Sequence record: ON286975
DNA length: 64,000 nucleotides
Direction: 5' to 3' (one strand)
DNA from: Escherichia phage I29
Shown here: positions 1-38,565 of the stretch, in pieces
Numbering within the stretch: the stretch's first letter is position 1
Layout: the number at the start of each line of letters is the position of its first letter
Translations under genes and position numbers: made by a program
Notes under the pieces: model-generated
Database searches by the model: none
The model's input: the letters and a program-made list of their open reading frames with translations, nothing else
Told to the model about the DNA's origin: nothing

Positions 1-266
1 TTTTGTTTTCTTTATCCCAACATCTGCTGCAATTTTCCTTGTGCTTGGTGTGAAGCGTGAATTTCCTCCAAGCTTATACCAGTTGTGCAGGTAGCAGTAT
101 ACGATCTTGTCATACAAGTCAAGAACAACAACCTCCCCAGTTGTGTCATTCAAAACTTTTGACATAGATAGTATTTCAAGGGGGACTTTAAGATATAGCA
201 GCTTATCCCCATCTTTCATATCTCCTGATTCTCCTTGTGTGGCAATTTTCTTTAAAATAGCAGGGA

Positions 267-821
267 TTACTCCCTGCTGTCAATATCAAAACTCATTGCA
301 ATACGGTATGCCTCTTCTAATGGTAAGAGTCTCCCCCACACATCCCAACCGACATCAAGCTGCCTGCCAAACAACTGTTGTGTGGTTCCGTGAGCATGAC
401 CGAACAGTTGGACTGATCCGTGAGGCTTTCTGTTCCACTTTGCAAACTGGTAATGGCTCATACAGATCAAATTCTTGTTGTGGCGAAGCTCGTAATAATC
501 TACAACCTCATGACCGAACTCTTTCATAATTCTGACAGTCGTCCTTGTGTCATGGTTGCCACGAACAAGAATAATATGTCCGTTCAACATATTTAGAATA
601 TCTGGAAGTAAGTTGTTGATATTCTTATCATTAGTGCACGCAATATCTCCCAAGTGGAACACAGTGTCTGCAGGTGACACAACAGAGTTCCACTTGGCGA
701 TGATTCCCGCATTCATACTGTCAAGATTGTGATCATACTGAGATCTGTGTTTTTGACATGAATCAAACTCCATGACCCGCTGGTGGAGAAAGTGTGTGTC
801 GCTTGTTACAAAGTATTTCAT
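267..821 (-). CDS. calcineurin-like metallophosphoesterase (Ser/Thr phosphatase or polynucleotide 3'-phosphatase)
   Basis: Motifs SDTHF, HLGDI, RGNHD, FGHAHG; start taken at internal MKYFVTSDTH rather than the track start at 926. Confidence 0.6.
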   Translation of the reverse strand: MKYFVTSDTHFLHQRVMEFDSCQKHRSQYDHNLDSMNAGIIAKWNSVVSPADTVFHLGDIACTNDKNINNLLPDILNMLNGHIILVRGNHDTRTTVRIMKEFGHEVVDYYELRHNKNLICMSHYQFAKWNRKPHGSVQLFGHAHGTTQQLFGRQLDVGWDVWGRLLPLEEAYRIAMSFDIDSRE

Positions 822-828
822 ACATTCC

Positions 829-1239
829 TCATTTAAGTTTAATGCAGTTTTTAAGCTGGCGTTCCATACGATCCACAACCTTGTCTGGAACATCATGAAT
901 GCTTTTATTACCGTGGCGGTTTTCAACCACGATCACGGTATAACTATACCCATGACTGATTGCCATGTCAACATATTCCTGCACATGTTTTTCTTTTGTA
1001 AACGTATTACTTACCACGATACGGTCGTATCCCATACGCATCATATCTTCTACGTTATCTTTGCACCATTTTGCTGCGAGTGTTACTTTACTTGCATCCC
1101 AGTTGTAATTGCCGTCATCGTCATACCAGAACATGTCGTTCTCAAAATGTGGATACAGACCCTCTAAAGATAGCGCATTTGCCAGTGTTGATTTGCCAGA
1201 CCCTGGTAGACCACGCACGATATATAGCATTTTAGACAT
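829..1239 (-). CDS. P-loop polynucleotide kinase-like protein (Pnk kinase domain-like)
   Basis: Walker A GLPGSGKST at N-terminus, T4 Pnk-like layout; start taken at MSKMLYIV with GGAGG RBS. Confidence 0.55.
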   Translation of the reverse strand: MSKMLYIVRGLPGSGKSTLANALSLEGLYPHFENDMFWYDDDGNYNWDASKVTLAAKWCKDNVEDMMRMGYDRIVVSNTFTKEKHVQEYVDMAISHGYSYTVIVVENRHGNKSIHDVPDKVVDRMERQLKNCIKLK

Positions 1240-1267
1240 AGTGACCCTCCGTTTTAATTTCAACGGT

Positions 1268-1296
1268 AGTATACCTGACTGTTTTGTTAATTTCAA
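1268..1296 (-). promoter_or_regulatory. sigma70-like promoter for the leftward kinase/phosphatase unit
   Basis: TTGAAA-17-TATACT on the minus strand upstream of the RBS. Confidence 0.5.
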
Positions 1297-1339
1297 GTGT
1301 TGACACTAGGTTATTTGTGTGGCAGGATAGACTGACAAA

Positions 1340-2275
1340 ATGACAAATGAGGAACGTATGATGAAGTATTTTAATGCAGACGACCTAGTTGACAAAGGTC
1401 TTGTAACCAGTAGGTATTACCCAGATCTCGGGTTAAAGATCTATAAATATGCTAGAAAAGTATTTTACAACAATTTATGGCATTTGTCCCCTCGTTTACT
1501 GGAGTGCCGAGGCATTGTTGTAGGTAATGAAGGAAATGTTGTGGCATGGCCCTTCACAAAAGTGTTTAACTTGGGAGAAAACTCCACCAACCTGCCTGAC
1601 AATAAGCTTGTGACTGCGGTAGAGAAAAAGAACGGATTCCTTGGTGTGGTATCATCTCATAAAGGTGACCTATTGTTCTCAACAACCGGGTCTCTTGATT
1701 CTCCATATTGTAACCTTGCAAAGGAAACCATCCAAGAGCAATGTGGTAATTTAGATCTTATCAAGAAGGTTATGGGCAATGAAAACATGACATTCATGTT
1801 TGAAATTTGTCACCCTTCAGATCCGCATATTGTTCAAGAAGACCATGGCGCATATTTGATAGGTTGCAGATATAATGATTCTGGAATAATGCTACCAGAA
1901 GCAGCTTTAGATGGGATTGCCAAATACCTTGGTGCAAAACGTCCTCACACTGTGCGTGAAATCCCGTTCAGCTATGCAAAAGAATTAGCTGCAGAAACAA
2001 GGGGCGAAGGGTATATGATCCGTAAGCCTTACTACCCTTATGACCTGCAGCTGAAGATCAAGTCTCCATACTATTTGGCACGGAAGGCCGTAATGAGGGG
2101 TAAAGCTTGGAAGATTTGGGATGATGATATCTTTAAACGTATTGACGAAGAGTTTTATGGCATGGTAAACTTCATTCGTAGCAATTACACAGAAGATGTG
2201 TGGAACTGCCTCCTGGAGCAGGAACGCCGTGAGATACTTGATTGCTATTTTCACAACGAGGACTATATGCAATGA
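1340..2275 (+). CDS. RNA ligase, T4 Rnl1-like
   Basis: ECRGI, KVFNLGEN and nucleotidyltransferase motif I EKKNGFLG resemble T4 RNA ligase 1. Confidence 0.6.
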   Translation: MTNEERMMKYFNADDLVDKGLVTSRYYPDLGLKIYKYARKVFYNNLWHLSPRLLECRGIVVGNEGNVVAWPFTKVFNLGENSTNLPDNKLVTAVEKKNGFLGVVSSHKGDLLFSTTGSLDSPYCNLAKETIQEQCGNLDLIKKVMGNENMTFMFEICHPSDPHIVQEDHGAYLIGCRYNDSGIMLPEAALDGIAKYLGAKRPHTVREIPFSYAKELAAETRGEGYMIRKPYYPYDLQLKIKSPYYLARKAVMRGKAWKIWDDDIFKRIDEEFYGMVNFIRSNYTEDVWNCLLEQERREILDCYFHNEDYMQ

Positions 2276-2622
2276 AGAAGTTGATTGTGTGGCTAGATGA
2301 CTTGAGAGATCCGTCAAATTACGGAATCCAAGATGCTCTTTGGCTGAAGAACTCTTCTGAGTTCATGGATTTTATTAACGATAATAGAAAGCTCTACAGG
2401 CGCGTTTCTGAGTGGCATTTTGACAATGATCTAGGTGAAGTGCTTGAAGGGTACGACTGCTTCTCTGCGCTAGAGGAGAAACTTGTATTCGGAAAGCCAC
2501 CACTTATTGACAACGTGATTATTTTCGTGCATACTTCTAATCCATCGGCAGCTCGTAAATTTATGCTTGCTGCTGACTCATTCAAGAAGTTTGGAATAGA
2601 GATTAAACAAAACATCTACTGA
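2272..2622 (+). CDS. hypothetical protein
   Basis: ORF with GAGGA RBS, ATGA overlap with upstream stop. Confidence 0.4.
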   Translation: MKKLIVWLDDLRDPSNYGIQDALWLKNSSEFMDFINDNRKLYRRVSEWHFDNDLGEVLEGYDCFSALEEKLVFGKPPLIDNVIIFVHTSNPSAARKFMLAADSFKKFGIEIKQNIY

Positions 2623-2630
2623 GGACACTT

Positions 2631-3392
2631 ATGCGACGACTGATTATTATCTCCGGTGCTGGTTTGAGCGCTGAATCTGGTATTCCCACTTTCCGATCTG
2701 GTAGCACTGCAATGTGGGAGAATTTCAGCATCGATGAGGTGTGCAACATCCACACCTTTGCCAAGAACTACTATAAGGTGCATGACTTTTACAATGCACG
2801 TCGTGTAGCTCTGGGCAGTGTTGATCCTAACCTTGCACATCTTCGGATCGCTGAGTGGTATTCCCGCTGGTCTGGTCGTGTGATCAACCTTACTACCAAT
2901 GTAGATGATTTGCTGGAGCGTGCTGGTGTAAAACATGAAGATATTTTACATGTCCACGGGTATTTGCCTGAAATCACCTACGAAGATGCTGAAGGTAATG
3001 ATGTAATTAAAAATATCGGATACACGGAGGTAGATACAGGCAAGTATACCTGGGTTAAGCCCAATGTAGTGTTCTTCGGTGAGGTTGCTCCTAAGTATAC
3101 AGACATGTATGACCTGTTGACATCTCTCACAAGCAATGATATGGTGATCCTGGTAGGTTGTTCTAACACAGTTATTAATTTTAACTGGGAATTGTTTCCT
3201 GCTACTTGTAAAGGCACAAAACTGCTGATTGTAAACAAGTATGATTCGCAGAGTGCAGATGGAAGTGGCATTTCACGTAGCGACCTTTATCAATATGAGG
3301 ATCGCGGGATCCCTGTATGGTTTAACGGTGCTGTTGACGCTTTCTCTGATAAAGCATTTATTGAAACTGTAGAAAACTTTATGGAACTTTAA
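2631..3392 (+). CDS. Sir2-family NAD-dependent protein (sirtuin-like)
   Basis: GAGLSAESGIPTFRSG NAD-binding motif, HVHG catalytic His region, VVFFGE; no zinc-ribbon cysteines. Confidence 0.75.
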   Translation: MRRLIIISGAGLSAESGIPTFRSGSTAMWENFSIDEVCNIHTFAKNYYKVHDFYNARRVALGSVDPNLAHLRIAEWYSRWSGRVINLTTNVDDLLERAGVKHEDILHVHGYLPEITYEDAEGNDVIKNIGYTEVDTGKYTWVKPNVVFFGEVAPKYTDMYDLLTSLTSNDMVILVGCSNTVINFNWELFPATCKGTKLLIVNKYDSQSADGSGISRSDLYQYEDRGIPVWFNGAVDAFSDKAFIETVENFMEL

Positions 3393-3405
3393 AAGGAGAC
3401 CTTTA

Positions 3406-4119
3406 ATGCTGAATACTAAACTGATCGACAACCTGGAAAAACTGTCCCAGCCTGAAAACTACCTTTGGTCTGCCAACTGGGTGGAAAACTGGAACCGTGT
3501 GGCAGCTAAAGTGAAAAAATCATACACACCATTCGAATTACAGCTTAGCTTCATTGAGGAAGAGTTCAATGAGGTTTTGGAAGAGCTGGAGAAAGGTGAT
3601 GGTGGAGATCACCTGCTAAAAGAGGCCTGCGATCTTCACGTTGTCACAAGTTATGCAGCTTATCTTGTTAATGATAACCACGAAAAGTGGTCAAACCTGT
3701 TTGATAATCCGCGAGGTCTTAAGTTCAAGATCGGTGAGTTCTATGATACACTGATCGCTGCGAAAAACACATCCAAGCAAAGAGCGTCAGCTTACCGACT
3801 AGCGGAGTTATCAACAGCTTTGCTGTTCCAGCTTAGCGGGGATGTGTGTGGGATGATGCGGAAGGTTCTAAAATCTAATGACAGTAAGTTTGCACGGATC
3901 AACCATCTACGGCATTCACACGGTGCCAGTGCAGATATGCCTGCTGAACAACTCATCGAGTTGGAGATTAAAGATCTTGAGCGTCGTTTTGGTGGTCGCT
4001 ACGAAGGTTTCGTTGCTAAAGAGGAGTTCTACAACGGCAATAAAGTTATTATATTCCTTGACAGTAAAGGTAAGATTATGAAGCCTTCGAGCTTCAAGGA
4101 TGTAACAGAGTATATTTAA
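3406..4119 (+). CDS. MazG-like nucleotide pyrophosphohydrolase (tentative)
   Basis: Acidic helical EEEFNEVLEELEKGD motif. Confidence 0.35.
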   Translation: MLNTKLIDNLEKLSQPENYLWSANWVENWNRVAAKVKKSYTPFELQLSFIEEEFNEVLEELEKGDGGDHLLKEACDLHVVTSYAAYLVNDNHEKWSNLFDNPRGLKFKIGEFYDTLIAAKNTSKQRASAYRLAELSTALLFQLSGDVCGMMRKVLKSNDSKFARINHLRHSHGASADMPAEQLIELEIKDLERRFGGRYEGFVAKEEFYNGNKVIIFLDSKGKIMKPSSFKDVTEYI

Positions 4120-4125
4120 CAACAT

Positions 4126-4150
4126 AGCCGGGATTACCCGGCTTTACTTA
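4126..4150 (+). terminator. intrinsic terminator-like hairpin
   Basis: agccggg-atta-cccggct stem-loop then T-rich tail. Confidence 0.45.
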
Positions 4151-4181
4151 TTATGGAAAGTATGCAGTGAGGTAGTCAGTT

Positions 4182-4490
4182 ATGTACAAGCATTCCAGAG
4201 ATCTTGAAAAAGATGCTGTGTTTGGCGACCAGATGAAGGAGCTGATCAAACTTATTGGTAGAATGGAAGATAAGTTTGACACTAAAATCTACATCGATAG
4301 CAAGGTCTTCAACCACAAAATATGGACAAATGTGTGTGTTGGGCTACATGGTGATAAAGATATTGTAAATTTGGTTGTAATAAAGTTCATAGTGTGGCAG
4401 AATAGGACTATACGTTATTACGACCCACACTTACTTGTTTATCCTATAAAAGACCTACTACAGAAGGAGGACTGCAATGCCGTTATTTAA
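4182..4490 (+). CDS. hypothetical protein
   Basis: ORF in arm orientation. Confidence 0.4.
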   Translation: MYKHSRDLEKDAVFGDQMKELIKLIGRMEDKFDTKIYIDSKVFNHKIWTNVCVGLHGDKDIVNLVVIKFIVWQNRTIRYYDPHLLVYPIKDLLQKEDCNAVI

Positions 4491-4746
4491 TCTTGCTAAA
4501 CCTGTAGAAGCACATCAGTTTGACGGAAGCTCTTCATCAGTATCTGATCTGCAACGGTGGATTGATACAGGTGTGTTTACATCGTCACCTGTTCGGACCA
4601 GAGATCTTCGTCGCATGTGTGAGCTTGTCGAGCCTTTTGGTAACCTTGTCTTGTACCAGGGAGATTGGCTAGTTGACTTTATGGGAGACTGGTTGGTAAT
4701 GAGTAAAGAAGAGATGTTTAAAATTTTTAAGGAAGAGGCCGAGTAA
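4477..4746 (+). CDS. hypothetical protein
   Basis: ORF in arm orientation, overlapping starts/stops. Confidence 0.4.
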   Translation: MPLFNLAKPVEAHQFDGSSSSVSDLQRWIDTGVFTSSPVRTRDLRRMCELVEPFGNLVLYQGDWLVDFMGDWLVMSKEEMFKIFKEEAE

Positions 4747-6029
4747 TGCATCAGATCAAAACAACACTGTACGCACTGAATAAAGATGGCAGCTACCAAC
4801 AGTGGAAAGTATTCACGGATGGTGATAAGGTTATCGTAGAGTTTGGCAAGCTTGATGGTAAACTGCAGTACAAAGAGACGGTATGCACACCTAAGAACGT
4901 AGGTCGTGCCAACGAGACTACAGCTGAGCAACAGGCCGAGCTTGAGGCTATCAGCAAGTGGGAAAAACAAGTCCGTCTGGGGTATGTTGAAAACATGGAA
5001 GATTGCGAGCAGGGTGTTGATCTTTTACCCATGCTGGTGCATGACTACCTGAAGCGTGGCAAGGCACTTAAATTACCTTGCTGGATCTTGCGTAAGTTAG
5101 ATGGCCTTCGTCTGCTTGTTGTTTTCCAAAATGGTGAGCCTAAATTTATTTCCCGTGGTAATAAGTCCTACCCTATTCAAGGAAAGCTTTTAGAGCAACT
5201 TCGTTCTTTCCATTCTACCACTGGGATTAAACAACTTGATGGGGAACTATACATTCATGGTCTTCCTTTGCAGAAAATAGTGTCTCTTGCTAAACGGTGG
5301 CGCACACAGGAAGAGATTCAGGCCGAGATCGATAAAGACTATGAGGCAGATAAAAAACGCCGTCATGCAGCAATTAAGGCAGGTTTATCAACATACAAAA
5401 ACTTCAACAAGGTAGATATTCCTGTCGATGTTGAGCCTGTTCGTGATGATTTGCGTTACGGTGGGTACTGTAGCTACGATCTGGAGTATCACATTTTTGA
5501 TATTCCTAGCGACAAGGTGTGGTGGGATCCAGAAACAGAGTCTGGACGCTGCAAGGATCTTATGGATGCAGAGGATACCGTTACCACTCTGATGCTTGAC
5601 CATATCAAGGTTGTTGACGCAGAGCTTGCGTACACAGTTGATCATTGCGAAGAATCTGTTGGTATATTCATGTCCGAAGGATATGAAGGTACTATCATGC
5701 GTAATTTCTGCGGTAAATACGAGTACGGTCAGCGAACATCTGAAGCATTGAAATGGAAAAAGTTCAACGACGCAGAGGTGAAAGTTATTGACGTTGAGAA
5801 AGATAAGAATGATGAAGGTGTTCTTATCTGTGTTGACAAGGAAGGTGTTATTGTTAAAATGAAGATGAAAGGCACGCACGAGGAGCGTAGCTATGACAGG
5901 ATGCAGGAAATGATCGGCAAGTTTGTCACCTTCAAATATCAATCAAGGACAGAAGACAACAACTACCAATTCCCTGTCGGTATCTGCGTCCGAAATGTTG
6001 ACCCAGACACTTGGGAGGTTCTGGAATGA
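4746..6029 (+). CDS. ATP-dependent DNA ligase (T7-like)
   Basis: Motif I KLDGLR, EGTIMR and ALKWKK motifs as in T7 DNA ligase. Confidence 0.7.
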   Translation: MHQIKTTLYALNKDGSYQQWKVFTDGDKVIVEFGKLDGKLQYKETVCTPKNVGRANETTAEQQAELEAISKWEKQVRLGYVENMEDCEQGVDLLPMLVHDYLKRGKALKLPCWILRKLDGLRLLVVFQNGEPKFISRGNKSYPIQGKLLEQLRSFHSTTGIKQLDGELYIHGLPLQKIVSLAKRWRTQEEIQAEIDKDYEADKKRRHAAIKAGLSTYKNFNKVDIPVDVEPVRDDLRYGGYCSYDLEYHIFDIPSDKVWWDPETESGRCKDLMDAEDTVTTLMLDHIKVVDAELAYTVDHCEESVGIFMSEGYEGTIMRNFCGKYEYGQRTSEALKWKKFNDAEVKVIDVEKDKNDEGVLICVDKEGVIVKMKMKGTHEERSYDRMQEMIGKFVTFKYQSRTEDNNYQFPVGICVRNVDPDTWEVLE

Positions 6030-6153
6030 TGTAGGAAGGTTTAGTAGGTAACGGTAGCCAATCGAATGATGGTTTTTCAATTGGCACCTACATAACCACA
6101 CTGTGTAGTGTTGTTGATCTGGTTAGTTATGAGTAAACTGGAGAGTATGAAAA

Positions 6154-6624
6154 ATGAAACTTGATAAAAATGTTCAACGAAAAGCTTTCTTGGATATGAT
6201 CGCATATTCAGAAGGCACAGATAATGGTAGACAACCCACCAAGGATCGGGGCTATGATGTCATAGTTGGTGGCAAGCTGTTTAGCGATTACAGCAAGCAT
6301 CCAGGTGTGTACGTTAAGCTAAATGCTAAACTTACCTCCTCCGCTGCTGGGCGTTACCAGGTTTTGGAGAAGTTTGCTAAACACTACATGGAACAGTTAG
6401 GATTGCCAGATTTTGGCCCTGCCAGTCAGGACAAGATTGCGTTGCAACTGATCCGTGAGTGCAAGGCTCTCGCCGACATTGACGAAGGGCGTATCCACGA
6501 GGCTATCCATAAATGCCGTTCCCGCTGGGCTTCGTTACCTGGTGCTGGATATGGTCAGCATGAACAGAAGATTGAGAAGTTGATCGAGGTGTTTAAAAAG
6601 GCAGGCGGTGTTGTCCTTGATTGA
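6154..6624 (+). CDS. endolysin, lambda R-like lytic transglycosylase
   Basis: QRKAFLDMIAYSEGTDNGRQ, YDVIVGG, AGRYQ, ASLPGAGYGQHEQK closely match lambda R. Confidence 0.9.
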   Translation: MKLDKNVQRKAFLDMIAYSEGTDNGRQPTKDRGYDVIVGGKLFSDYSKHPGVYVKLNAKLTSSAAGRYQVLEKFAKHYMEQLGLPDFGPASQDKIALQLIRECKALADIDEGRIHEAIHKCRSRWASLPGAGYGQHEQKIEKLIEVFKKAGGVVLD

Positions 6625-6894: not shown

Positions 6895-6903
6895 GGAGAA
6901 TAC

Positions 6904-7368
6904 GTGGAAGACGGACGTTTAATGAAGTCTGAACGCAGGCTTATTGTGCAACTGATCCCAGAAACAGCTTGGTATAATAACCTACGAAACGCTGTGAAGA
7001 AGAGTGAGTGGGATAAGATCCGTAAGAAGTGCTACAGAGAAGCCAACTACACTTGTGAGGTGTGCGGAGGTAAAGGCAGCAAACATCCAGTGGAGTGTCA
7101 TGAACTTTACACTTTCGAAGAGGGAGTGATCCGGCTTGTCGGACTGATAGCGTTGTGCCCAGATTGTCACACATCTGTGCATCCTGGGTTAGCAAATATC
7201 CGTGGAAAGTATGCTCAGGCAGTTAATCAGTTGGCTAAGGTGAATAAGATCACCAAGGGTATGGCAGAGGCCTATTACCGAGACTGCTTTGCAGAGTGGC
7301 GTGAGCTTAGTAAAGTTCCAGAATGGAAGACTGACTTTTCGTGGATAGAAGGTTACCTTGATGGCTAA
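6904..7368 (+). CDS. HNH-family zinc-finger nuclease-like protein
   Basis: CEVCGG...ECHELY...CPDCHTSVH pattern. Confidence 0.4.
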   Translation: MEDGRLMKSERRLIVQLIPETAWYNNLRNAVKKSEWDKIRKKCYREANYTCEVCGGKGSKHPVECHELYTFEEGVIRLVGLIALCPDCHTSVHPGLANIRGKYAQAVNQLAKVNKITKGMAEAYYRDCFAEWRELSKVPEWKTDFSWIEGYLDG

Positions 7369-7651
7369 GAAACCTGCAAAAGAGAAATTTGATAAGACAG
7401 CTTTTGTATTCGATACACCTCTGGACGATATCATCAGAGGTATGCAAGCCTTGTATCGGAAGTCTGAATCTGAGCAGTTGTCGGAATCAGAGCTTTACTG
7501 GTTGGGTTGGTGGGAGCTTAATCTACCTAAAGCTGAAAGCTCTGATCTAAAAACCGTTAAAACGTGTGCCCAAGAAAATGCTGCACTTGGAATTTACCAC
7601 AAAAGAAAAAGATCAACAAAAAGCTCTCCAAGAAAGACTAAAAAGTCTTGA
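7358..7651 (+). CDS. hypothetical basic protein
   Basis: ORF in arm orientation. Confidence 0.35.
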   Translation: MMAKKPAKEKFDKTAFVFDTPLDDIIRGMQALYRKSESEQLSESELYWLGWWELNLPKAESSDLKTVKTCAQENAALGIYHKRKRSTKSSPRKTKKS

Positions 7652-29947: not shown

Positions 29948-30414
29948 CGATGTTTGTTAAATATGTAAAAACGTGCCTCAACAGCCTTGGCAGAGAGCAT
30001 TGGTACACCTTGCTTGAAAAAGGAGAAATTTTAACAAAATCTGGAAAGATAACTTTGATACCTCTTGATAGTAAAGGTAAAGACCCGTCACGACTTGTTA
30101 TAGATGATTACGTTACAGGTGTGACGTTCGAGGTCTCTGTGGAGAGGTTAATACGCAGAGCTGGCGGCCCTTATGACCGAAGAGAGTATGTTTTCGATTC
30201 CGTTACAGAGATGGGGGAGCATCCGTCTTTAATGTTCAGGATGGTAATCAGAGATATGAGGTCATCTATAGATAGGATCGTAAAGGACATTAAGGAACCT
30301 TTTAGAGTAAAAGTTAAGAAGTTTTTCGATTCTAAGATTAACATACTCGCCGTTGCACTAGGTGTAGTTCAACTTCTGTTAATTTTGCACTATTTTGAAC
30401 TGTTGTTTAAGTAG
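29944..30414 (+). CDS. hypothetical protein with C-terminal hydrophobic segment
   Basis: ORF in arm orientation. Confidence 0.4.
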   Translation: MTMFVKYVKTCLNSLGREHWYTLLEKGEILTKSGKITLIPLDSKGKDPSRLVIDDYVTGVTFEVSVERLIRRAGGPYDRREYVFDSVTEMGEHPSLMFRMVIRDMRSSIDRIVKDIKEPFRVKVKKFFDSKINILAVALGVVQLLLILHYFELLFK

Positions 30415-30474
30415 TGTGCAACAAGGCACAAAGGATGTGCCATAATTAAACAAATTAAGAAAGAGGTAGAGAGA

Positions 30475-30822
30475 ATGTCAAAGATTAAATCGATATTAAT
30501 GTGGGTAGCTGTTGTGGCTTTTGTAGGATACTGGACTTGGGAAACTGAATTAAAAGATATCGGATATACCAGTCTTGAGAGCAAGGCGTGCATTGGCATA
30601 ACCGATGCATTCAGGCAAAATGCTATGGATCACGAATGTGTCGATGCAGATATAGATGAGAAACTGTCTAAGGACAAGGATTTTTACCATGGTCATGCCT
30701 TGCTTGATAGTGGTGACACTGTAGAATTCTGGTCGTGGTTCCGTGAAGATGGAACAATAAAGACAGCAGTAAAGATTTCCAACAAAGAGTTAATGCTGTT
30801 GCAGCAGAAGGAGGTGCAATGA
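30475..30822 (+). CDS. hypothetical membrane-anchored or secreted protein
   Basis: N-terminal hydrophobic helix. Confidence 0.4.
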   Translation: MSKIKSILMWVAVVAFVGYWTWETELKDIGYTSLESKACIGITDAFRQNAMDHECVDADIDEKLSKDKDFYHGHALLDSGDTVEFWSWFREDGTIKTAVKISNKELMLLQQKEVQ

Positions 30823-31106
30823 TTTGGATATCCTACACTGATGGCACCATGCTGTATACTGCAGGTACCAGATATGAAGTTCAGGAGAACGATAAAAAAT
30901 TTATCGTAAAAACATTTGACAAGGACGACAACCTTTTGCTAGAATTGACTTACAAAGTTGGAGAGGTATCCAATATCCAGTTGGATTGTGGTCATAAAGA
31001 TAATCCACTCAAAAAACCTGGAGTAGGTAAGGCTTCAGAAGAACGTCTGTCTCGTATTGCAGAAAGCGTTTCTCCCCAAAAATCTAAGAAGAGGACTAGA
31101 AAATGA
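30819..31106 (+). CDS. hypothetical protein
   Basis: ATGA-coupled ORF. Confidence 0.4.
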   Translation: MIWISYTDGTMLYTAGTRYEVQENDKKFIVKTFDKDDNLLLELTYKVGEVSNIQLDCGHKDNPLKKPGVGKASEERLSRIAESVSPQKSKKRTRK

Positions 31107-31297
31107 AAAACTTACGTTTTAACACTTATTACTACAACACATTGAATGATTTGTATTATATTGTTCGAAGTAAAAGTCCTGAAACAGTCCTATTCTGCCG
31201 CGAACCTTTCAAAGGGGAGGAAGTAGAGTCTGAGATGAATGTTAGCCAGATCACCTCTTTGTTGCTCTCAGGCGCAATGGAAGAAGCAATATTCTAA
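31103..31297 (+). CDS. hypothetical protein
   Basis: ATGA-coupled ORF. Confidence 0.35.
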   Translation: MKNLRFNTYYYNTLNDLYYIVRSKSPETVLFCREPFKGEEVESEMNVSQITSLLLSGAMEEAIF

Positions 31298-31315
31298 ACC
31301 AGGCGGGAGGGTTTT

Positions 31316-31501
31316 ATGAAGCACTATTGCCTGTCTGGTAGAATGGGTGCAGATTGTGATTGGGTTTTCTTAAAACTTGTCAGCATTCGAGAGTTCATCC
31401 CAGAGGAAGAGCAAGAAAGCGAGCTGATGTCATGGATCAACCATTACGGTAACACTTTTCGGCATGTTAAGGTGGAAGAGTTGCCAAGCGAGGCTGATTG
31501 A
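31316..31501 (+). CDS. hypothetical protein
   Basis: ORF in arm orientation. Confidence 0.35.
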   Translation: MKHYCLSGRMGADCDWVFLKLVSIREFIPEEEQESELMSWINHYGNTFRHVKVEELPSEAD

Positions 31502-31596
31502 CTATGATTGCATCAATATTAACGTTTATGGGTGGCGTGGCATTCGGATTCATTGTTTGCCTGTTTATAGTGATTATGTCTATGCGAGGCTGAATT

Positions 31597-31893
31597 ATGA
31601 AACTTTTTGAGTGGTTTAAAAAGTTTAAATATAAAGCTGTAGCCATCGTGCCGTGGTCCATTCAGTGGGTTGATGAAGGTGGTCTACCAATACCTGGTGA
31701 CAAAGATACTGGGTACTGGATTATGATGGAGAACGGGTTTGGAAAGCGAAAGTATACGTGCACAAACTCTACTCGATCTGCACTTAATAGAGTGCCTGGT
31801 TACAAACTTATGGTTGTGTGGAAAATGTCAGGTGTGCCTCCAGCTAATGCTCAATTTCTTACTGACAATCCGACCACGGTGGAGGGAGATTGA
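31597..31893 (+). CDS. hypothetical protein
   Basis: ORF in arm orientation. Confidence 0.4.
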   Translation: MKLFEWFKKFKYKAVAIVPWSIQWVDEGGLPIPGDKDTGYWIMMENGFGKRKYTCTNSTRSALNRVPGYKLMVVWKMSGVPPANAQFLTDNPTTVEGD

Positions 31894-32177
31894 TAATGAA
31901 AAAGATTAACAGTGGTGAAGTTGAGTTTAAACTTGTCGGGAAAGGCACTTACTGGGAAGTTCGTCAAAAGGTATATTTGTTCGGTCTTATTCCCTATTGG
32001 TCTAAATTCTACTGGGGAGCTAACGAGTGGGGAAGATACGCCACCAAATCAATGGCACTTATTGGTATAGCAGAGTACATTGCAGCCAGAGATAGGGTTG
32101 GAGACACTTATTACTATACTGCGGACGATATTCGTAACAGTGTTTACGTCCCACAACCACCTGATGGAGACCGTTGA
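31890..32177 (+). CDS. hypothetical protein
   Basis: ATGA-coupled ORF. Confidence 0.4.
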   Translation: MIMKKINSGEVEFKLVGKGTYWEVRQKVYLFGLIPYWSKFYWGANEWGRYATKSMALIGIAEYIAARDRVGDTYYYTADDIRNSVYVPQPPDGDR

Positions 32178-32401
32178 TGAAAGTTAAAGTTTTAGATTCA
32201 AGCTTCTATATTGGTCAGGAGCCTTTAGTAGGGAAATTGTTTACTGCTGTCCCTAACGAAGATTACCCTGACCTTTTAAAAATAAAAGGGGCAGATCTTA
32301 TTGCCGCTGGTGCATCTCAGGAATGCTTTGACAGTCAGTGGACCTACAACTTTGCCCTAGGTGAGGATGTAGAGGTAGTGGAGGACGATCATGAAGGTTA
32401 A
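32174..32401 (+). CDS. small acidic protein, MKVKxL paralog family
   Basis: MKVKVLDSSFYIGQ, IKGADLIAAGA, VEVVED. Confidence 0.5.
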   Translation: MMKVKVLDSSFYIGQEPLVGKLFTAVPNEDYPDLLKIKGADLIAAGASQECFDSQWTYNFALGEDVEVVEDDHEG

Positions 32402-32645
32402 AATTCTTGATTCTAACGTCTACTTGGGACAATCCTTCCTGAATGGAAAGGTCGTTCCTGCGGTATACTTTGAAGGGTTGCCGTGGGATGATCCTGTGCG
32501 GCAACATCACAGTTATGTAGGCCACAACGTGGTGTTTATCTTGGGATCAGACCTGATCACCGCTGGTGCACCTGAATATTATTTCGGGGAAGAGTCCTAC
32601 TATGCCTTTGGGGTAGGGTCAGATGCAGATATTGTAGAGCTGTGA
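32391..32645 (+). CDS. small acidic protein, MKVKxL paralog family
   Basis: MKVKILDSNVYLGQ, LGSDLITAGA, DIVEL. Confidence 0.5.
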   Translation: MKVKILDSNVYLGQSFLNGKVVPAVYFEGLPWDDPVRQHHSYVGHNVVFILGSDLITAGAPEYYFGEESYYAFGVGSDADIVEL

Positions 32646-32657
32646 TGGGTAACCGTT

Positions 32658-33056
32658 GTGAAAAATAAACTGTTTAAAGTTACAATGAAAATTCGCGGGG
32701 CTTGGAGCGTAAAGCAAGGGCGTATTCCAGAATTTGAGAAGGACTTCTACGTAGTCTCCACCTCGGAGGAGGCTGCATGCTGGCAGGCTGGCTATGCCTA
32801 TGCAAGAACCTGGTACGAAGGATACCAGACTGGGGGCTATGACGGAGAAATTATCAGCAAGGGTGTAGAAGAAATTAATGTGTTGACAAGTGAAAAAGTT
32901 TTTGTTATAGTGCATCCAGATTCCAGAGTGAAGCATTACTGGAATTCCAGAACAAAAACTTGGACACCGTTTGCAGATTCTGCTACACCACTTTTAAACC
33001 AGAAAGCTCTTGATTCTGTCCCAAGCTATGGGGTTGTTGAAGAAAAGCTAAACTGA
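32658..33056 (+). CDS. hypothetical protein
   Basis: ORF in arm orientation. Confidence 0.4.
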   Translation: MKNKLFKVTMKIRGAWSVKQGRIPEFEKDFYVVSTSEEAACWQAGYAYARTWYEGYQTGGYDGEIISKGVEEINVLTSEKVFVIVHPDSRVKHYWNSRTKTWTPFADSATPLLNQKALDSVPSYGVVEEKLN

Positions 33057-33073
33057 AACAGTGAGGTGCCACT

Positions 33074-33364
33074 ATGATGGATTTAGTTCTGAATATTGAT
33101 AACGCAGGAGAGGTTAAAGACGATGGTGTAACAAGCATGGACCAGCCATGCCCTGCCAAGATTGACTCAAAATGGACCTATAAGTTTGACGGAGAGATCT
33201 TTGCAAATGATGAAAAGGTTGTAGATGCTGCAGCCATTTTGAACGCTCTAGGGTACGACCCTGTAAATTCTTTGATCAAGGATCCTGTTGAGTTTGCAGA
33301 GTATGTTCGAAAAATGGCAGATCTTGCTGTAGATATTTTAAATACTATCGACAACAATCTGTAA
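33074..33364 (+). CDS. hypothetical acidic protein
   Basis: ORF in arm orientation. Confidence 0.4.
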   Translation: MMDLVLNIDNAGEVKDDGVTSMDQPCPAKIDSKWTYKFDGEIFANDEKVVDAAAILNALGYDPVNSLIKDPVEFAEYVRKMADLAVDILNTIDNNL

Positions 33365-33370
33365 AAACTG

Positions 33371-33399
33371 TTGACACAACGCTTCAGATTTAGTATCAT
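33371..33399 (+). promoter_or_regulatory. sigma70-like promoter with 5'-UTR hairpin, upstream of the HPF-like gene
   Basis: TTGACA-17-TATCAT, then agaggg-tttggtt-ccctct hairpin and AAAAGGA RBS. Confidence 0.55.
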
Positions 33400-33446
33400 T
33401 GTTTTCAAAGAGGGTTTGGTTCCCTCTTCTTTAAAAGGAACACGTT

Positions 33447-33764
33447 ATGCAAATTGAAATCACTGGCAACGTAGAAATCACTGAAGGTATGGTGTCTTTC
33501 ATTTCCCACAAAATGTCTAAGCTGGAGCGTTTGCACCCCTCTGCCAACTATGCACGTGTGAGTGTAAAAGTTGAAAATGATCACCAGGAAGTTATGGCGT
33601 TCATTTTTGACAATTCTGGAAAAGAAGTTATTGCCAAAGCTAAAGGCAGTGATGCTTACGAGGCAACTGACCGTATGGTAGATGTTGCAGCACGTCAGCT
33701 GGCTAAATGTGGTGGAAAGAAAGGTAAGGGGAAAGGCAAAGTAAAGATTGACTTTGGAGAATGA
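33447..33764 (+). CDS. ribosome hibernation promoting factor / RaiA (YfiA-HPF family) homolog
   Basis: MQIEITGNVEITEGM...KLERL...VSVKVE...GSDAYEATDRMVDVAARQLAK follows E. coli HPF/YfiA. Confidence 0.75.
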   Translation: MQIEITGNVEITEGMVSFISHKMSKLERLHPSANYARVSVKVENDHQEVMAFIFDNSGKEVIAKAKGSDAYEATDRMVDVAARQLAKCGGKKGKGKGKVKIDFGE

Positions 33765-33901
33765 GGTGCTACAATGGGTGTGATTAAGAAATTAGTCCCA
33801 AATGTAGAGATTGCATGCTTTGAAATTATGTTTGCAATCGCAGTTGTAGTTAATGTGTTAGGTTACGGCTATTAATATCAAATAATTGAGGAGACCTCTA
33901 A

Positions 33902-34171
33902 ATGAAAATTAAATTATTCAAAACTGAGCTGGCAGACAAAAACTGTGGACTGGTTGAAGGCATGATTGTCGAAGCACAACCAGTTGACTATATGAAGGTG
34001 GTTCGTGATGCCCTGGGTGAAGGTTTTGATCTGATGGAGCCAGCTCTGCGCGAAGATGTTATCGAGATGGCTAAAAAGCACACACCTGAAGGTTTGGTGG
34101 TGTTTGTTGCACCGGGTAACGGAGAAGAGTTGATTGTAACTCCTGATGTGTATGAGATTGTAGAGGAATAA
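33902..34171 (+). CDS. small acidic protein (MKIKL/MKVKxL-like)
   Basis: MKIKLFKTEL..., C-terminal EIVEE. Confidence 0.45.
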   Translation: MKIKLFKTELADKNCGLVEGMIVEAQPVDYMKVVRDALGEGFDLMEPALREDVIEMAKKHTPEGLVVFVAPGNGEELIVTPDVYEIVEE

Positions 34172-34262
34172 TCCTGCTTGGATTAGCATACTTCCTCGAT
34201 AAGGAAGATTTGTAATTATTTGTGGGAAAGGAATCCCAATCTCTTACCAGAGGTGATACTAT

Positions 34263-34526
34263 ATGATTGTTTATTTTAAAACTTCAGGTGGATACCCTGA
34301 TTCTCAAAGCTTGATCGGAAAAACGTGCACAGCATACTCACCTCTTGATGAGGAGGTAAGCGATATTCTACGAAATATGTATCGGATTGATCCCCAAGAA
34401 GCTTTTGATCAAAACCTTGTATTTGTCAAGGGCTCAGACATGAAGTCTTTGGGAGCATTCCCTGAAGCAGATGATGATGCCGTTTATTCGTTCATGACCC
34501 CTTTTGAAGCTATGGTTGTTGGGTGA
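34263..34526 (+). CDS. small acidic protein, MKVKxL paralog family (divergent)
   Basis: GYPDSQSLIGK, VKGSDMKSLGA. Confidence 0.45.
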   Translation: MIVYFKTSGGYPDSQSLIGKTCTAYSPLDEEVSDILRNMYRIDPQEAFDQNLVFVKGSDMKSLGAFPEADDDAVYSFMTPFEAMVVG

Positions 34527-34530
34527 TAAT

Positions 34531-34863
34531 ATGAAAGTACGCTTTATTGGTGAAACAATTCCTGTGCATCTCCGGTCGCCTGAAGATTCTGCGGATCTTG
34601 CATCTCAGAAGGCGAGAGGTTATGATAAGAAAGTAATCTCAACCGATGTAGAACTTGAGGCTACTAGTCTACCTGACCCTGCTGCATTCTTCAATCATTA
34701 TGGATACTATTTCAGCAATCTGATGAATATCGGTGAGCTTGTGTTTATTAGTGGTGGAGAGATTGTTAGCAAGCTTGGCGGCGATCCAGATGTCTTTCAT
34801 GAAACCTGTCCTTTTGCATTTGTGGTAGGTTCAGATGTGGAAGTTATTGAGGAGGTGCGGTAA
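34531..34863 (+). CDS. small acidic protein (paralog family, divergent)
   Basis: MKVRFIGE start, FISGGEIVSKLGG, VEVIEE. Confidence 0.45.
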   Translation: MKVRFIGETIPVHLRSPEDSADLASQKARGYDKKVISTDVELEATSLPDPAAFFNHYGYYFSNLMNIGELVFISGGEIVSKLGGDPDVFHETCPFAFVVGSDVEVIEEVR

Positions 34864-35258
34864 TGGTAAGCCTATACCGTGTTGAGTATAGCTCAGATAC
34901 TGTATACAACGTAAGAAGCAAAGATCGCAGCGACAGAGTGCAAGAAATGTATGTTCTTGCCGACAGTCCGTTATCTGCAGCGTTCAAGGCAGGGGCTCTT
35001 GCATCTCGTTGGAAATTTGAAGGCGGATCTTTCTATGAAGAAACCCTTGAAGATTCTGTTGTTATTTCTTCTGTAGAGGTTTCAGACGACTACGAAGGGA
35101 AAAAGTTCGTAATGCGGCACCCACACAGCAACATTGCGTACTACTGGGATGTTCTGAACAACGAGTGGACCCCAGATCTTCAGAAGGCTACTGTGCTAAC
35201 ACCGTTTTTGGCAGATAAGTTCCCACCAGAAGGTAATTTATCCGCACTGTTTCAGTAA
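34863..35258 (+). CDS. hypothetical protein
   Basis: ATGG-coupled ORF. Confidence 0.4.
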   Translation: MVSLYRVEYSSDTVYNVRSKDRSDRVQEMYVLADSPLSAAFKAGALASRWKFEGGSFYEETLEDSVVISSVEVSDDYEGKKFVMRHPHSNIAYYWDVLNNEWTPDLQKATVLTPFLADKFPPEGNLSALFQ

Positions 35259-35275
35259 TTTTCTTGCACACAGGT

Positions 35276-35306
35276 GTTGACAACGCCAACCCTGTGTGAA
35301 ATAATA
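35276..35306 (+). promoter_or_regulatory. sigma70-like promoter
   Basis: TTGACA then A/T-rich -10 region. Confidence 0.45.
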
Positions 35307-35334
35307 CCTTCATCTTAACAAGACAGGAGACCGA

Positions 35335-35595
35335 TTGATGAAGATTAAATTGAAAAACCTTGAAACGGCAGAGATTCAGGACGGTGTTGATTTCCGTTCT
35401 AAAGATGGTGACATCTTAGAGGTAAATATTCCAACCTACGAGCTGATTAAAGGTTTTGGCAACGTTCCGGAAGAGGATATTACAGAAATTCTTATGATGT
35501 TGATTCTTGACGGAACTGTGTTTGTAGGTGAAGGTGAGAACGCTATTGCAATCCCAGGCCATTTTTATGAAGTAGTTGACGAAGAGGTGCTGTAA
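35335..35595 (+). CDS. small acidic protein
   Basis: MMKIKLKNL start, C-terminal EVVDEEVL. Confidence 0.45.
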   Translation: MMKIKLKNLETAEIQDGVDFRSKDGDILEVNIPTYELIKGFGNVPEEDITEILMMLILDGTVFVGEGENAIAIPGHFYEVVDEEVL

Positions 35596-35946
35596 ATGAA
35601 AGTAGAAATTACCGGTTTTGATGTGAATGTGGTTCCGGAAGATATTTTAGCTAAACTTCCAGAAGGTTTTGGTAACGGCGTTGTGGTGGATGCTGTTCCT
35701 CCTACCAAAGACATTCTGCTGCAGTATGGTGTAGCAGAGGAAGATGTCGATAAAGTTCTTACAATGATGGCAATCGATCGTGTTGTCGTTGTTAAAGGTC
35801 TCGATAATTTTGAGAGTGATCCCCTGATTATTCGTGGAGATGACTACAAAATCATCGATAATGAAGGCCAAGAGTTCTATGAACCTTGTGCAGAAGATAT
35901 TCTTAACTTATTACTGGAAGCAGGTACCGAAGAGGAGGACGAATAA
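35596..35946 (+). CDS. small acidic protein
   Basis: MKVEITGFD start, acidic tail. Confidence 0.45.
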   Translation: MKVEITGFDVNVVPEDILAKLPEGFGNGVVVDAVPPTKDILLQYGVAEEDVDKVLTMMAIDRVVVVKGLDNFESDPLIIRGDDYKIIDNEGQEFYEPCAEDILNLLLEAGTEEEDE

Positions 35947-36275
35947 TGAAGATTGACCCGTTACTGAAGGCTCGTGCAGAAAAAGCGTACACCATTAAGC
36001 TGACCAACCTGGTTCCTACTTGTCATCCAGATGTAGGTTGGCCTGAAGGTCTGGTAGAGGGGACTGTAACAGCTGCATACCTCCCTAACATCAAATACCT
36101 TATGGAAATCTTGGAGCTGGATGAGGAAACGGCAGAAGAGTTACAGTTGGACATGAAACAAAGTGGGACTCTGGTTATTCACGGGTGGTATAATACTAAA
36201 GACGCAGAAGACCCTCTTGTAACTTCTAATCTGGCATATGAAATCTTAGGACCTTTGAACCTGGGGGAAGACTAA
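35946..36275 (+). CDS. small acidic protein
   Basis: ATGA-coupled ORF. Confidence 0.45.
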   Translation: MKIDPLLKARAEKAYTIKLTNLVPTCHPDVGWPEGLVEGTVTAAYLPNIKYLMEILELDEETAEELQLDMKQSGTLVIHGWYNTKDAEDPLVTSNLAYEILGPLNLGED

Positions 36276-36568
36276 TGAAAGATCTGGTTAAGATTAAGAT
36301 TAAGATTAAAGATACCAACGGCGAACTCAGCCATTTTGGAATTAATGATGGTGACGAGCTGATCGCACACCTTCCTACCAAGGAAGTTGTAAGCAAGGCG
36401 GTTGCCGGAGAAGAAGATGCAATGCAGGCTGCAGGTGTGGATGAAAACTATGTAGCCATGTGCATGTGCCGAGATCAGGTTGTTCTGTATAAAGCGTATC
36501 GACCAAACGGAGCCACGGAGTGGCTTGTATTCCGACCAGAAGGATATGAAATCTTAGAGGCACTATGA
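36275..36568 (+). CDS. small acidic protein
   Basis: ATGA-coupled ORF. Confidence 0.45.
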   Translation: MKDLVKIKIKIKDTNGELSHFGINDGDELIAHLPTKEVVSKAVAGEEDAMQAAGVDENYVAMCMCRDQVVLYKAYRPNGATEWLVFRPEGYEILEAL

Positions 36569-36657
36569 TAAATCTTGCCAAGGTTGCAACGGCACTATTA
36601 ATTATTTGCTGGTCAGTAACCTTAACACTGTGTCTTGTATTTCAGTAAGGTGCTTGT

Positions 36658-36921
36658 ATGAACATCCTGATGTGGGTTATAGCAGTGGCGTTTGTTGCAT
36701 GTTTTTGCTGCTGGGTTGCGGTGAGGATTTCTGTAGCTACCCTTCGGAAGTTGGGGTTCTCAGAATGGGATATTAATATCCTTTCTTTTCGCAATGAAAC
36801 AATCTCAGCCGCCCTGCTTTGTAAGAAATTTAAGTGGGAACCTTGTGAGGTCATGAGCTATCTAAGAACAGGCGATATCCCTGAAAGATTTAAAAAAGTT
36901 CTTGACGGCAAGGATAAATAA
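36658..36921 (+). CDS. small membrane protein
   Basis: N-terminal hydrophobic helix. Confidence 0.4.
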   Translation: MNILMWVIAVAFVACFCCWVAVRISVATLRKLGFSEWDINILSFRNETISAALLCKKFKWEPCEVMSYLRTGDIPERFKKVLDGKDK

Positions 36922-37076
36922 CAGTATAGTGACTAACAAGAGGTGAGGGGTGACTGATTTTACTGAAGCTTTAATGATGGCCTTGTCTGTTTTAGCGCTA
37001 TCGGTGTGTTTTGGGGCGTTATTCACATCTCTGGTTAAAGTTTTACATACAGTATTATTACCCAAGGAGCGCAGTA

Positions 37077-37328
37077 ATGACGAAGATTGACTTGAATGCT
37101 GGTGATCATGTTGTTGTCAAATGCATTGGAGATTATCTTGGATTCACAATCGGCAATACTTATGAGGCGGTAGTGGCGAAGGTTTATCATGATAAAGTCC
37201 TCAGTCTTGTATTTGACTGCGATGATGATGGGGATGACCGATACGTCTGTGAGGTGCTGGCACGAGACGATAGTGAAGACCAGAAATTCCTGGTTATTGA
37301 ACTGAACGGTATTTTTGTAGAACGTTAA
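37077..37328 (+). CDS. hypothetical acidic protein
   Basis: Start at MTKIDL after AAGGAG RBS. Confidence 0.4.
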   Translation: MTKIDLNAGDHVVVKCIGDYLGFTIGNTYEAVVAKVYHDKVLSLVFDCDDDGDDRYVCEVLARDDSEDQKFLVIELNGIFVER

Positions 37329-37356
37329 TTTAAAACAACATAAGGAGACTCTTACT

Positions 37357-37662
37357 ATGGCTAAATCTAAAGTTGAACTGTTCACCTCTCTTCCTTCTGA
37401 CACTGCAGAACGTGATCGCCTTCGCAAAACAATCGAAGAACTGGTGGAACTCCAGCTTCAGATTAAAGACCTGAAAGATGCCATCAAGGATATCATTCTC
37501 GTTGAGAAGCAGGATCATCTGTATTCTCCTAAATTCATCAAATCTCTGGTGGCTACAGAGTTCGATATTCGCTATGAGGCTGAAAAACGTCGCGCTAAAA
37601 TCGAAGAAGAGGTTGAGCACATGTCTGAGGCAGACATTCTGTTCAAACGCTCTGTAGAATAA
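37357..37662 (+). CDS. hypothetical coiled-coil protein
   Basis: AAGGAGA RBS; charged helical sequence. Confidence 0.45.
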   Translation: MAKSKVELFTSLPSDTAERDRLRKTIEELVELQLQIKDLKDAIKDIILVEKQDHLYSPKFIKSLVATEFDIRYEAEKRRAKIEEEVEHMSEADILFKRSVE

Positions 37663-37670
37663 TGACAAAG

Positions 37671-37697
37671 AGAGGGGCTTGGGCCCCTCTTTTTACT
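37671..37697 (+). terminator. intrinsic terminator
   Basis: agaggggc-ttg-ggcccctct then ttttact. Confidence 0.6.
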
Positions 37698-37717
37698 ATC
37701 TATGAAGGAGATTTGAG

Positions 37718-38352: not shown

Positions 38353-38376
38353 CAAAATATCAAATTTAAGACACCT

Positions 38377-38404
38377 AGGACGCTCTGTGGCGTCCTTTTC
38401 TTTA
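38377..38404 (+). terminator. intrinsic terminator
   Basis: aggacgc-tctgtg-gcgtcct then ttttctttatc. Confidence 0.6.
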
Positions 38405-38565
38405 TCTGGTGCACGATTGCATACCTTGGACAGATAATCTCATTACAGAGCGTTTAAGAGCTTCCTACAAACAAATCTCTCTTTCGAGCGTAGCGAGAAC
38501 GCACGTCCGTTTTGACCCAAATCACCATACGCTCGGATTTTAACCAAACCCTCGCGGCGTTTCTG

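Follow-up and report, generated by a model that had tools for sequence, protein, structure and literature searches.

A ligase, kinase and metallophosphoesterase cassette of Escherichia phage I29, predicted to heal and seal broken RNA

Introduction

PrrC, RloC, HEPN RNases, Cas13, retrons and PARIS exemplify the tRNA-cleaving defenses, whose wide distribution is now recognized. Essentially the sole phage repair answer to have been studied is Pnkp and Rnl1 of phage T4, which reverse the damage done by PrrC (PMC7824862). Here, we analyze a 64,000-nt stretch of Escherichia phage I29 (ON286975; hereafter the window, in which all positions are counted) that carries genes for an Rnl1-like RNA ligase, a P-loop polynucleotide kinase and a metallophosphoesterase (MPE).

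Loci of this kind have been described before. Iyer, Burroughs, Anantharaman and Aravind (2022, Viruses 14:1977; PMC9503650) defined a sirtuin-linked RNA-repair neighborhood, 'type 2', with Escherichia phage V5 and Proteus phage Mydo as prototypes. It comprises a sirtuin, a T4-like ligase, a cREC (cyclic-phosphate-processing receiver-like) protein, a kinase and a MazG-like protein, with or without a calcineurin-like protein, and occurs in medium-sized proteobacterial phages. The sirtuin was proposed to remove an RNA 2'-phosphate in the fashion of KptA (PMC9503650). For the Pakpunavirus Adele, tRNA repair has been proposed for an orthologous kinase and ligase; its authors remarked that a 3'-phosphatase domain was missing, and did not tie the nearby phosphoesterase to that role. 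I29 belongs to Vequintavirus, and all six genes of the type 2 neighborhood lie within 267-4119 of the window.

We conclude, with a probability of about 0.72, that the locus encodes a split heal-and-seal RNA repair module, likeliest directed against host cleavage of tRNA or other translation RNA and thus serving phage counter-defense. What we observe, as described below, is that the proteins belong to the corresponding families with their active sites intact, and that their genes are linked across phages and in some genomes fused; enzymatic activity, RNA substrate and counter-defense role are inferred.

Family assignment of the three proteins

The cassette consists of three open reading frames (ORFs):

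267-821, minus strand: binuclear MPE, aq_1665-like, 184 aa; predicted RNA 2',3'-cyclic phosphodiesterase / 3'-phosphatase for 3' end healing
829-1239, minus strand: standalone P-loop polynucleotide 5'-kinase-like protein, 136 aa; predicted 5'-OH RNA kinase
1358-2275, plus strand: T4 Rnl1-type ATP-dependent RNA ligase (PF09511), 305 aa from the ATG at 1358, in an ORF that opens at 1340

A preliminary description of this DNA had read the same ORFs (267-821, 829-1239 and, divergently, 1340-2275) as a T4 Rnl1-like ligase facing a P-loop polynucleotide kinase and a calcineurin-like phosphoesterase, the latter two as separate genes. All three ORFs are present, kinase and phosphatase are indeed two ORFs, and each of the three family assignments was borne out by the searches that follow.

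The ligase matches Pfam RNA_lig_T4_1 (PF09511) over profile positions 1-227 of 227 (E=1.1e-14; 55.3 bits against a cutoff of 28.3) and PHROG 562, RNA ligase (7e-66). Searches of the PDB with the ligase or the kinase as a single sequence gave nothing useful, and family profiles were needed. A ligase profile built from 28 family members had T4 Rnl1 as its sole PDB match (2C5U, E=7e-13); Trl1 and the chains named as Pnkp ligase domain were not reached. Residues R57, K74, F76, K96, G99, E155, E223, G224, K239 and K241 are invariant in the 28 members and align with T4 Rnl1 R54, K75, F77, K99, G102, E159, E227, G228, K240 and K242. With an AlphaFold (AF2) model of the ligase (predicted local distance difference test score, pLDDT, 90.6), Foldseek placed Trl1-LIG, T4 Rnl1 and archaeal Rnl3 at the top (E about 1e-11 to 1e-12). 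DNA ligases scored 1e-5 or worse, and there were no capping enzymes among the 50 matches listed. Identity as a DNA ligase was ruled out by this far poorer standing in the fold search. The sequence alignment to T4 Rnl1 ends at T4 residue ~250, and the model shows ~65 aa of helices after residue 243. Because profile, invariant residues and fold matches agree, the protein is placed, as judged from sequence and model, among the Rnl1-clade RNA ligases, with a shortened C-terminal region.

The kinase scores above the gathering threshold for Pfam AAA_33 (E=1e-10), a family that is not specific by itself, and matches PHROGs 2071 (ATPase, 3e-58) and 505 (polynucleotide kinase, 5e-10). A profile built from ligase-linked family members gave, as its best full-length matches, Pnkp1 (4XRP, 4e-8), T4 Pnk (1.6e-6), Clostridium thermocellum Pnk (CthPnk, 2e-5) and mammalian PNKP (6e-5); the tRNA kinase PSTK was also among the matches. 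The AF2 model (pLDDT 85.7) superimposes on CthPnk with a template modeling (TM) score of 0.77-0.80 and on T4 Pnk with 0.75-0.78, versus 0.46-0.62 for small-molecule kinases. Polynucleotide kinases are thus the best matches in both sequence and fold. The P-loop, GLPGSGKST, is intact, and the invariant D35 aligns with catalytic Asp35 of T4 Pnk. R9, ahead of the P-loop, is also invariant, which is unusual. Neither profile nor fold searches put the ligase in a DNA ligase or capping family, or the kinase in an unrelated one.

The MPE scores above the gathering thresholds of both Metallophos_2 (E=1e-6) and Metallophos (4e-6) in Pfam, and matches PHROG 547, phosphoesterase (2e-51). Its metal-ligand motifs (D8/H10, G58-D59, G88-N89-H90, H123 and G141-H142-x-H144) are invariant across 17 family members. 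The sole clear solved relative reached by the family profile was Aquifex aq_1665 (1XM7, 7e-21); neither 4J6O (C. thermocellum Pnkp, CthPnkp) nor 1G5B (lambda-Pase) appeared at E<=0.1. A phosphatase of the CthPnkp or lambda-Pase type was ruled out by this search. The preliminary description had called the enzyme the type known from bacterial Pnkp. That is right at the level of the MPE superfamily but not of the clade, which is aq_1665-like and not that of CthPnkp and lambda-Pase. A homologue search returned only standalone proteins of ~190 aa, with no informative fusions, and the literature on aq_1665, 1XM7 or COG4186 yielded no functional information.

Conserved linkage and natural fusions

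To survey linkage, we took 80 IMG/VR loci, each with a gene for a ligase relative (36-89% identity; 35 clusters at 60% identity), and ran profiles that had the window proteins as seeds against the ORFs of these loci. Occurrence was as follows:

Kinase: present in 74/80, within 2 kb of the ligase in 70, same strand in 73
MPE: present in 62/80, within 2 kb of the ligase in 60
Full triad: present in 59/80, within 2 kb in 53
cREC: present in 11/80, within 2 kb of the ligase in 11
Sir2 (sirtuin): present in 11/80, within 2 kb of the ligase in 10
MazG-like: present in 13/80, within 2 kb of the ligase in 1

In 46 of 74 loci, kinase and ligase were separated by no more than 100 bp; random placement in the loci would give 1.3. 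For the MPE, the corresponding figures were 30 of 62 and 1.0. DNA ligase, which served as an internal control, showed no adjacency enrichment. Gene order varied among MPE-LIG-KIN, KIN-LIG-MPE and LIG-MPE-KIN, and the divergent arrangement of the window was found only in the rV5-like locus (L003 of our numbering, plus the GenBank records L001 and L002). In PVP-SE1, an HNH homing endonuclease gene sits between the MPE and ligase genes (L084 3869-4510).

Natural fusions join the same predicted activities. In one phage clade, kinase and ligase form a single ORF of ~430 aa, seen in 10 full-length copies and 2 cut at contig ends. The fusion clade (L037, L038, L042-L044, L047, L051, L052, L055, L056) has no MPE within 8 kb; inspection by eye of the surroundings of one MPE-less fusion (L052), made with no profile search, revealed no evident substitute phosphoesterase. 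The ligase family is rare in GTDB species genomes, where 34 loci were found. Among them, Cardiobacteriaceae (L087, L091, L095, L115) encode a kinase-ligase fusion of ~500 aa followed immediately by a member of the phage's MPE family. Leptolyngbya sp. PCC 7375 (L097 4726-6864) and about 25 other Leptolyngbyaceae loci (L088-L118) encode a protein of ~710 aa. It combines a CthPnk-like kinase (4GP6, 1.5e-11), a CthPnkp-like MPE (4J6O, 5.8e-25) and the phage's ligase family (RNA_lig_T4_1); the domains are ordered as in Pnkp, with the ligase drawn from another family. Downstream of the cyanobacterial fusion, at 1.6 kb, comes an RtcB-like gene (L097 8466-9647); a Hen1 partner was sought beside the fusion and not found.

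The ligase family has therefore been joined repeatedly to a polynucleotide kinase and an MPE, even to ones from different families. No computational support for a shared RNA-end substrate is stronger than this recurrent joining. Together, linkage across the 80 loci and the fusions uphold the functional grouping of the three genes made in the preliminary description.

Organization of the locus and its neighbors

The first 6.1 kb of the window is 99.8% identical to Escherichia phage MaxTheCat (BASEL Bas57; Vequintavirus), and ~110 other rV5-like phage genomes match it at 97-99% identity. GenBank names the three MaxTheCat genes 'putative phosphoresterase', 'polynucleotide kinase' and 'RNA ligase'. 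Eighteen records titled 'Campylobacter phage' (e.g. C12 and C14) are ~97.6% identical to E. coli rV5-like phages over window 1-6100, and their 'Campylobacter' host labels appear doubtful.

Around the triad lie the following features:

1240-1357, unstranded: divergent intergenic region with back-to-back promoter-like -35 boxes and two ribosome-binding sites
2272-2622, plus strand: cREC protein, 116 aa (PF20274)
2631-3392, plus strand: CobB-like (class III) sirtuin lacking the Zn-binding cysteines, 253 aa (PF02146)
3406-4119, plus strand: candidate MazG-like nucleotide pyrophosphohydrolase, 237 aa (PHROG 671)
4126-4143, plus strand: terminator-like GC-rich hairpin, identified by pattern match alone

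The ligase ORF was confirmed on the plus strand, but the start given to it in the preliminary description (1340) was not. A Shine-Dalgarno sequence, GAGGAA, stands at 1349-1354, upstream of the ATG at 1358, with nothing comparable upstream of 1340, and the GenBank start of the MaxTheCat ligase is at the position equivalent to 1358. Translation is thus more likely to begin at 1358, as far as sequence can tell. On the minus strand, GGAGG precedes the kinase ATG, and the kinase stop codon falls within the Shine-Dalgarno sequence of the MPE, 7 nt ahead of its ATG. The divergent spacer (~100 bp) has TTGACA at 1300-1305 on the plus strand, and TTGAAA and TATACT separated by 17 nt at 1296-1268 on the minus strand. 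Promoter-like sites in the region numbered 18, against 14 +/- 3.6 in shuffled sequences. With no excess of such matches over shuffled sequence, the back-to-back -35 boxes are no more than suggestive.

The preliminary description had the three-gene set right but overlooked cREC, the Zn-less sirtuin and the MazG-like gene, which follow the ligase. The ligase stop overlaps the cREC start as ATGA, and the onward gaps are 9 and 14 nt. The ligase is thus predicted to head a four-gene transcription unit of ligase, cREC, Sir2 and MazG-like genes. The hairpin at 4126-4143 (AGCCGGG-ATTA-CCCGGCT with a T-rich tail; 7 pairs, 6 of them GC) is suggestive of a terminator that would close the unit.

The cREC protein matches PF20274 (cREC_REC, 4.3e-14), and its receiver-type acidic residues (WLDDLRDP, FDNDLGE, HTSNP) are kept in the aligned copies. 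Proteins of this type are predicted to be phosphoesterases for cyclic phosphates (PMC7824862, PMC9503650). The sirtuin matches PF02146 (7e-28), with E. coli CobB as top PDB match (1S5P, 3e-21). It retains the GAGxSxxSGIPTFR, TxNVD and HG motifs, that is, the NAD site and the catalytic His, and has no Cys at any of CobB's four Zn-binding positions. The last gene matches PHROG 671 (1.9e-21) and no Pfam family at E<=0.01; Iyer et al. named the MazG-like gene of this neighborhood a MazG-superfamily pyrophosphatase (PMC9503650).

No tRNA gene was found anywhere in the window, and Rfam gave zero matches in window 1-6200. MaxTheCat carries six tRNA genes (Arg, Tyr, Lys, Thr, Ile and Pro; L001 422-1234) on the strand of the kinase and MPE genes, about 2.6-3.5 kb to the left of window position 1. 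In PaP1 (L083 4322-6867), the triad is directly followed by ribose-phosphate pyrophosphokinase (PRPS)-like and nicotinamide phosphoribosyltransferase (NAMPT)-like genes, which may form a phage NAD+-reconstitution pair, and in PVP-SE1 (L084 1-699) a PRPS-like gene is nearby. These contexts suggest a counter-defense gene island.

Elsewhere in the window, a putative homing endonuclease gene lies at about 6900-7370. A 13-kb stretch (30400-43650) lacks any ORF of >=150 aa, and GC skew changes sign near 38 kb; both are consistent with numerous small genes in a block and a reversal of transcription direction.

Discussion

The three proteins can be assembled into a repair pathway. The kinase would phosphorylate the 5'-OH end of the broken RNA, and the MPE would open and strip a 2',3'-cyclic phosphate, or strip a 3'-phosphate, to give a 3'-OH. 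The ligase would then adenylylate itself on Lys96, pass AMP to the 5'-phosphate and seal the break. The likeliest substrate would be tRNA or another translation RNA, cleaved by host RNases that do not depend on metal, such as anticodon nucleases of the PrrC/RloC type, HEPN RNases or colicin-like tRNases. The published readings of the V5 locus (PMC9503650) and of the orthologous Adele kinase and ligase are in agreement with RNA repair. By analogy with T4 Pnkp and Rnl1 and the PrrC precedent, the module may act in phage counter-defense. The nearby tRNA cluster and the PRPS-like and NAMPT-like genes of PaP1 lend this role weak support. In Vequintavirus, the ligase would be co-transcribed with cREC, the Zn-less sirtuin and the MazG-like protein. 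Because cREC and Sir2 are each found in 11/80 loci and can occur apart, we regard them as probable lineage-specific accessories to a more widely conserved ligase-kinase-MPE core.

Several points weigh against this interpretation. The ligase keeps 10 of the 12 residues that we take, from the Shuman-lab mutational literature, to be essential in T4 Rnl1 (a list that includes the motif I Lys nucleophile); at the positions of T4 D101 and K119 it has invariant N98 and T116. Its C-terminal region is much shorter than the tRNA-specificity domain of T4 (about 120 aa). In the kinase, the acceptor-binding Arg (T4 R38, Cth R41) lacks a counterpart, with an aromatic residue or His in its place (EADMFHY and similar; NDMFWY in the window), and R108 (ENRHG), which aligns near the lid Arg of T4 (R122/R126), is absent from one family subgroup. 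The predicted role of the MPE in 3' end healing rests on genomic context, because its family has no characterized member. The surveyed loci are mutually related and not phylogenetically independent, so P values for adjacency overstate significance. Our literature search found no experimental study of these proteins or close relatives, and no published Vequintavirinae test of rescue on hosts with anticodon nucleases. Anticodon nucleases and retron effectors are reported to target Lys and Tyr tRNAs, and the tRNA cluster may for this reason be an alternative route around tRNA cleavage, a second answer in parallel. From metal-dependent tRNases (PIN/VapC, TOPRIM), one would expect RNA ends for which healing is not required. 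The retron Eco2, a TOPRIM tRNase, still defends against Vequintavirinae (PMC12916289), and therefore any protection is not general.

Of the alternatives, the one that survives best, while still unlikely, is the NAD+-dependent, sirtuin-centered repair of Iyer et al. (2022), in which six genes, not three, would be the functional unit in an I29-type phage. Here, cREC or the MPE would open the 2',3'-cyclic phosphate to a 2'-phosphate, and the ligase would seal in the manner of Trl1. The Zn-less sirtuin would strip the 2'-phosphate by ADP-ribosyl transfer, like KptA/Tpt1, and MazG, cREC or the MPE would remove the ADP-ribose cyclic-phosphate by-product. This route is a published proposal (PMC9503650), and it accords with the presence of all six gene types, the tight packing from the ATGA overlap to the hairpin after MazG, and the contiguous order ligase-cREC-kinase-Sir2 in PVP-SE1. 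The conserved residues of cREC and the intact NAD site and catalytic His of the sirtuin fit as well, and Foldseek places Trl1-LIG level with T4 Rnl1. Yet by sequence the ligase profile reaches T4 Rnl1 and not Trl1, and cREC and Sir2 are each found in only 11 of 80 loci, compared with 74 for the kinase and 62 for the MPE. cREC occurs without Sir2, and Sir2 without cREC, in three loci each, one of these (L035) on a weak, partial cREC match. Furthermore, no sirtuin is known to act on an RNA 2'-phosphate, cREC is uncharacterized, and there would be no need for a 2'-phosphate route if the MPE can take off terminal phosphates. Our evidence is compatible with this already published hypothesis (PMC9503650) but does not favor it. 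Were it true, cREC would be a new kind of 2',3'-cyclic phosphodiesterase and the Zn-less CobB-like sirtuin an RNA 2'-phosphotransferase, each activity new for its fold; we hold that outcome to be just as doubtful as the route itself.

Somewhat less probable again is a housekeeping role, in which the cassette would repair or process RNA or other nucleic-acid ends broken by the phage's own nucleases, or would mature phage tRNAs, and would not serve counter-defense. The cassette does lie among nucleic-acid metabolism genes (DNA ligase, exonucleases, endonuclease VII), with DNA ligase in the same 16-kb locus in 42/80 cases, and the phage tRNA cluster is nearby. The cellular versions in cyanobacterial chromosomes show that the chemistry is not inherently anti-defense. 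But DNA ligase is not preferentially adjacent, the PaP1 triad adjoins the PRPS-like/NAMPT-like pair with its presumed NAD+-reconstitution function, and T4, the sole such phage system whose role is known, serves counter-defense. Finally, it is very improbable that the genes form no pathway at all, the ligase being a gp63-like tail-fiber attachment factor and the kinase and MPE acting on nucleotides or cyclic-nucleotide immune signals: many database records do carry the T4 gp63 name 'RNA ligase and tail fiber attachment catalyst', AAA_33 P-loop kinases and MPEs do include many small-molecule enzymes, and Iyer et al. label the kinase just 'nucleotide kinase', but the kinase-ligase and kinase-MPE-ligase fusions and the permuted yet persistent adjacency would be difficult to account for if the proteins shared no substrate, the catalytic residues of the ligase are invariant, and the kinase fold is nearer to polynucleotide kinases than to small-molecule kinases.

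A heal-and-seal module of ligase, kinase and MPE would matter beyond I29. At least 664 sequenced phages encode a ligase of this family, among them candidates for therapy (Pakpunavirus, rV5-like and PVP-SE1-like phages). A function for the cassette would account for three very common genes of the 'hypothetical/ATPase/phosphoesterase' sort and would show which defenses these neutralize, and the cassette could yield compact new RNA end-modifying enzymes.

How does the locus compare with known systems? The type 2 locus of V5 is the same locus in a close relative, with identical gene content. The description of that neighborhood centers on the sirtuin and treats the MPE as 'occasional' (PMC9503650), whereas our ligase-anchored survey finds kinase and MPE widespread and cREC and Sir2 lineage-restricted. 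Pakpunavirus (PaP1, PAK_P1, Adele) has orthologous MPE, ligase and kinase genes in one co-directional block that lacks cREC, Sir2 and MazG. T4 Pnkp and Rnl1 resemble the I29 set in the three predicted chemistries, the Pfam family of the ligase, and the fold and catalytic Asp of the kinase. They differ in that the T4 phosphatase is a HAD/DxDxT acylphosphatase and not a binuclear MPE, that kinase and phosphatase are separate genes in I29, and that the three genes are clustered there, unlike in T4. Compared with T4 Rnl1, the I29 ligase has a C-terminus shorter by ~70 aa, no alignable tRNA-specificity domain, and N98 and T116.

Clostridium thermocellum Pnkp likewise unites a P-loop 5'-kinase, an MPE as 3'-healing enzyme and an ATP-dependent ligase, and the cyanobacterial protein with the Pnkp domain order carries I29's ligase family as its C-terminal domain. 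In contrast to bacterial Pnkp, I29 has three polypeptides, an MPE of another family and no match of its ligase profile to Pnkp ligase chains. A scan of seven proteins encoded in 267-6029 gave no match to a methyltransferase family, and hence no candidate for Hen1. The locus is thus a split, MPE-based version of a known kind, already annotated in GenBank and described in 2022 (PMC9503650). To that annotation and published prediction, which the analysis correctly re-derives, we add comparative evidence, from linkage and fusions, in support of joint action by the three proteins.

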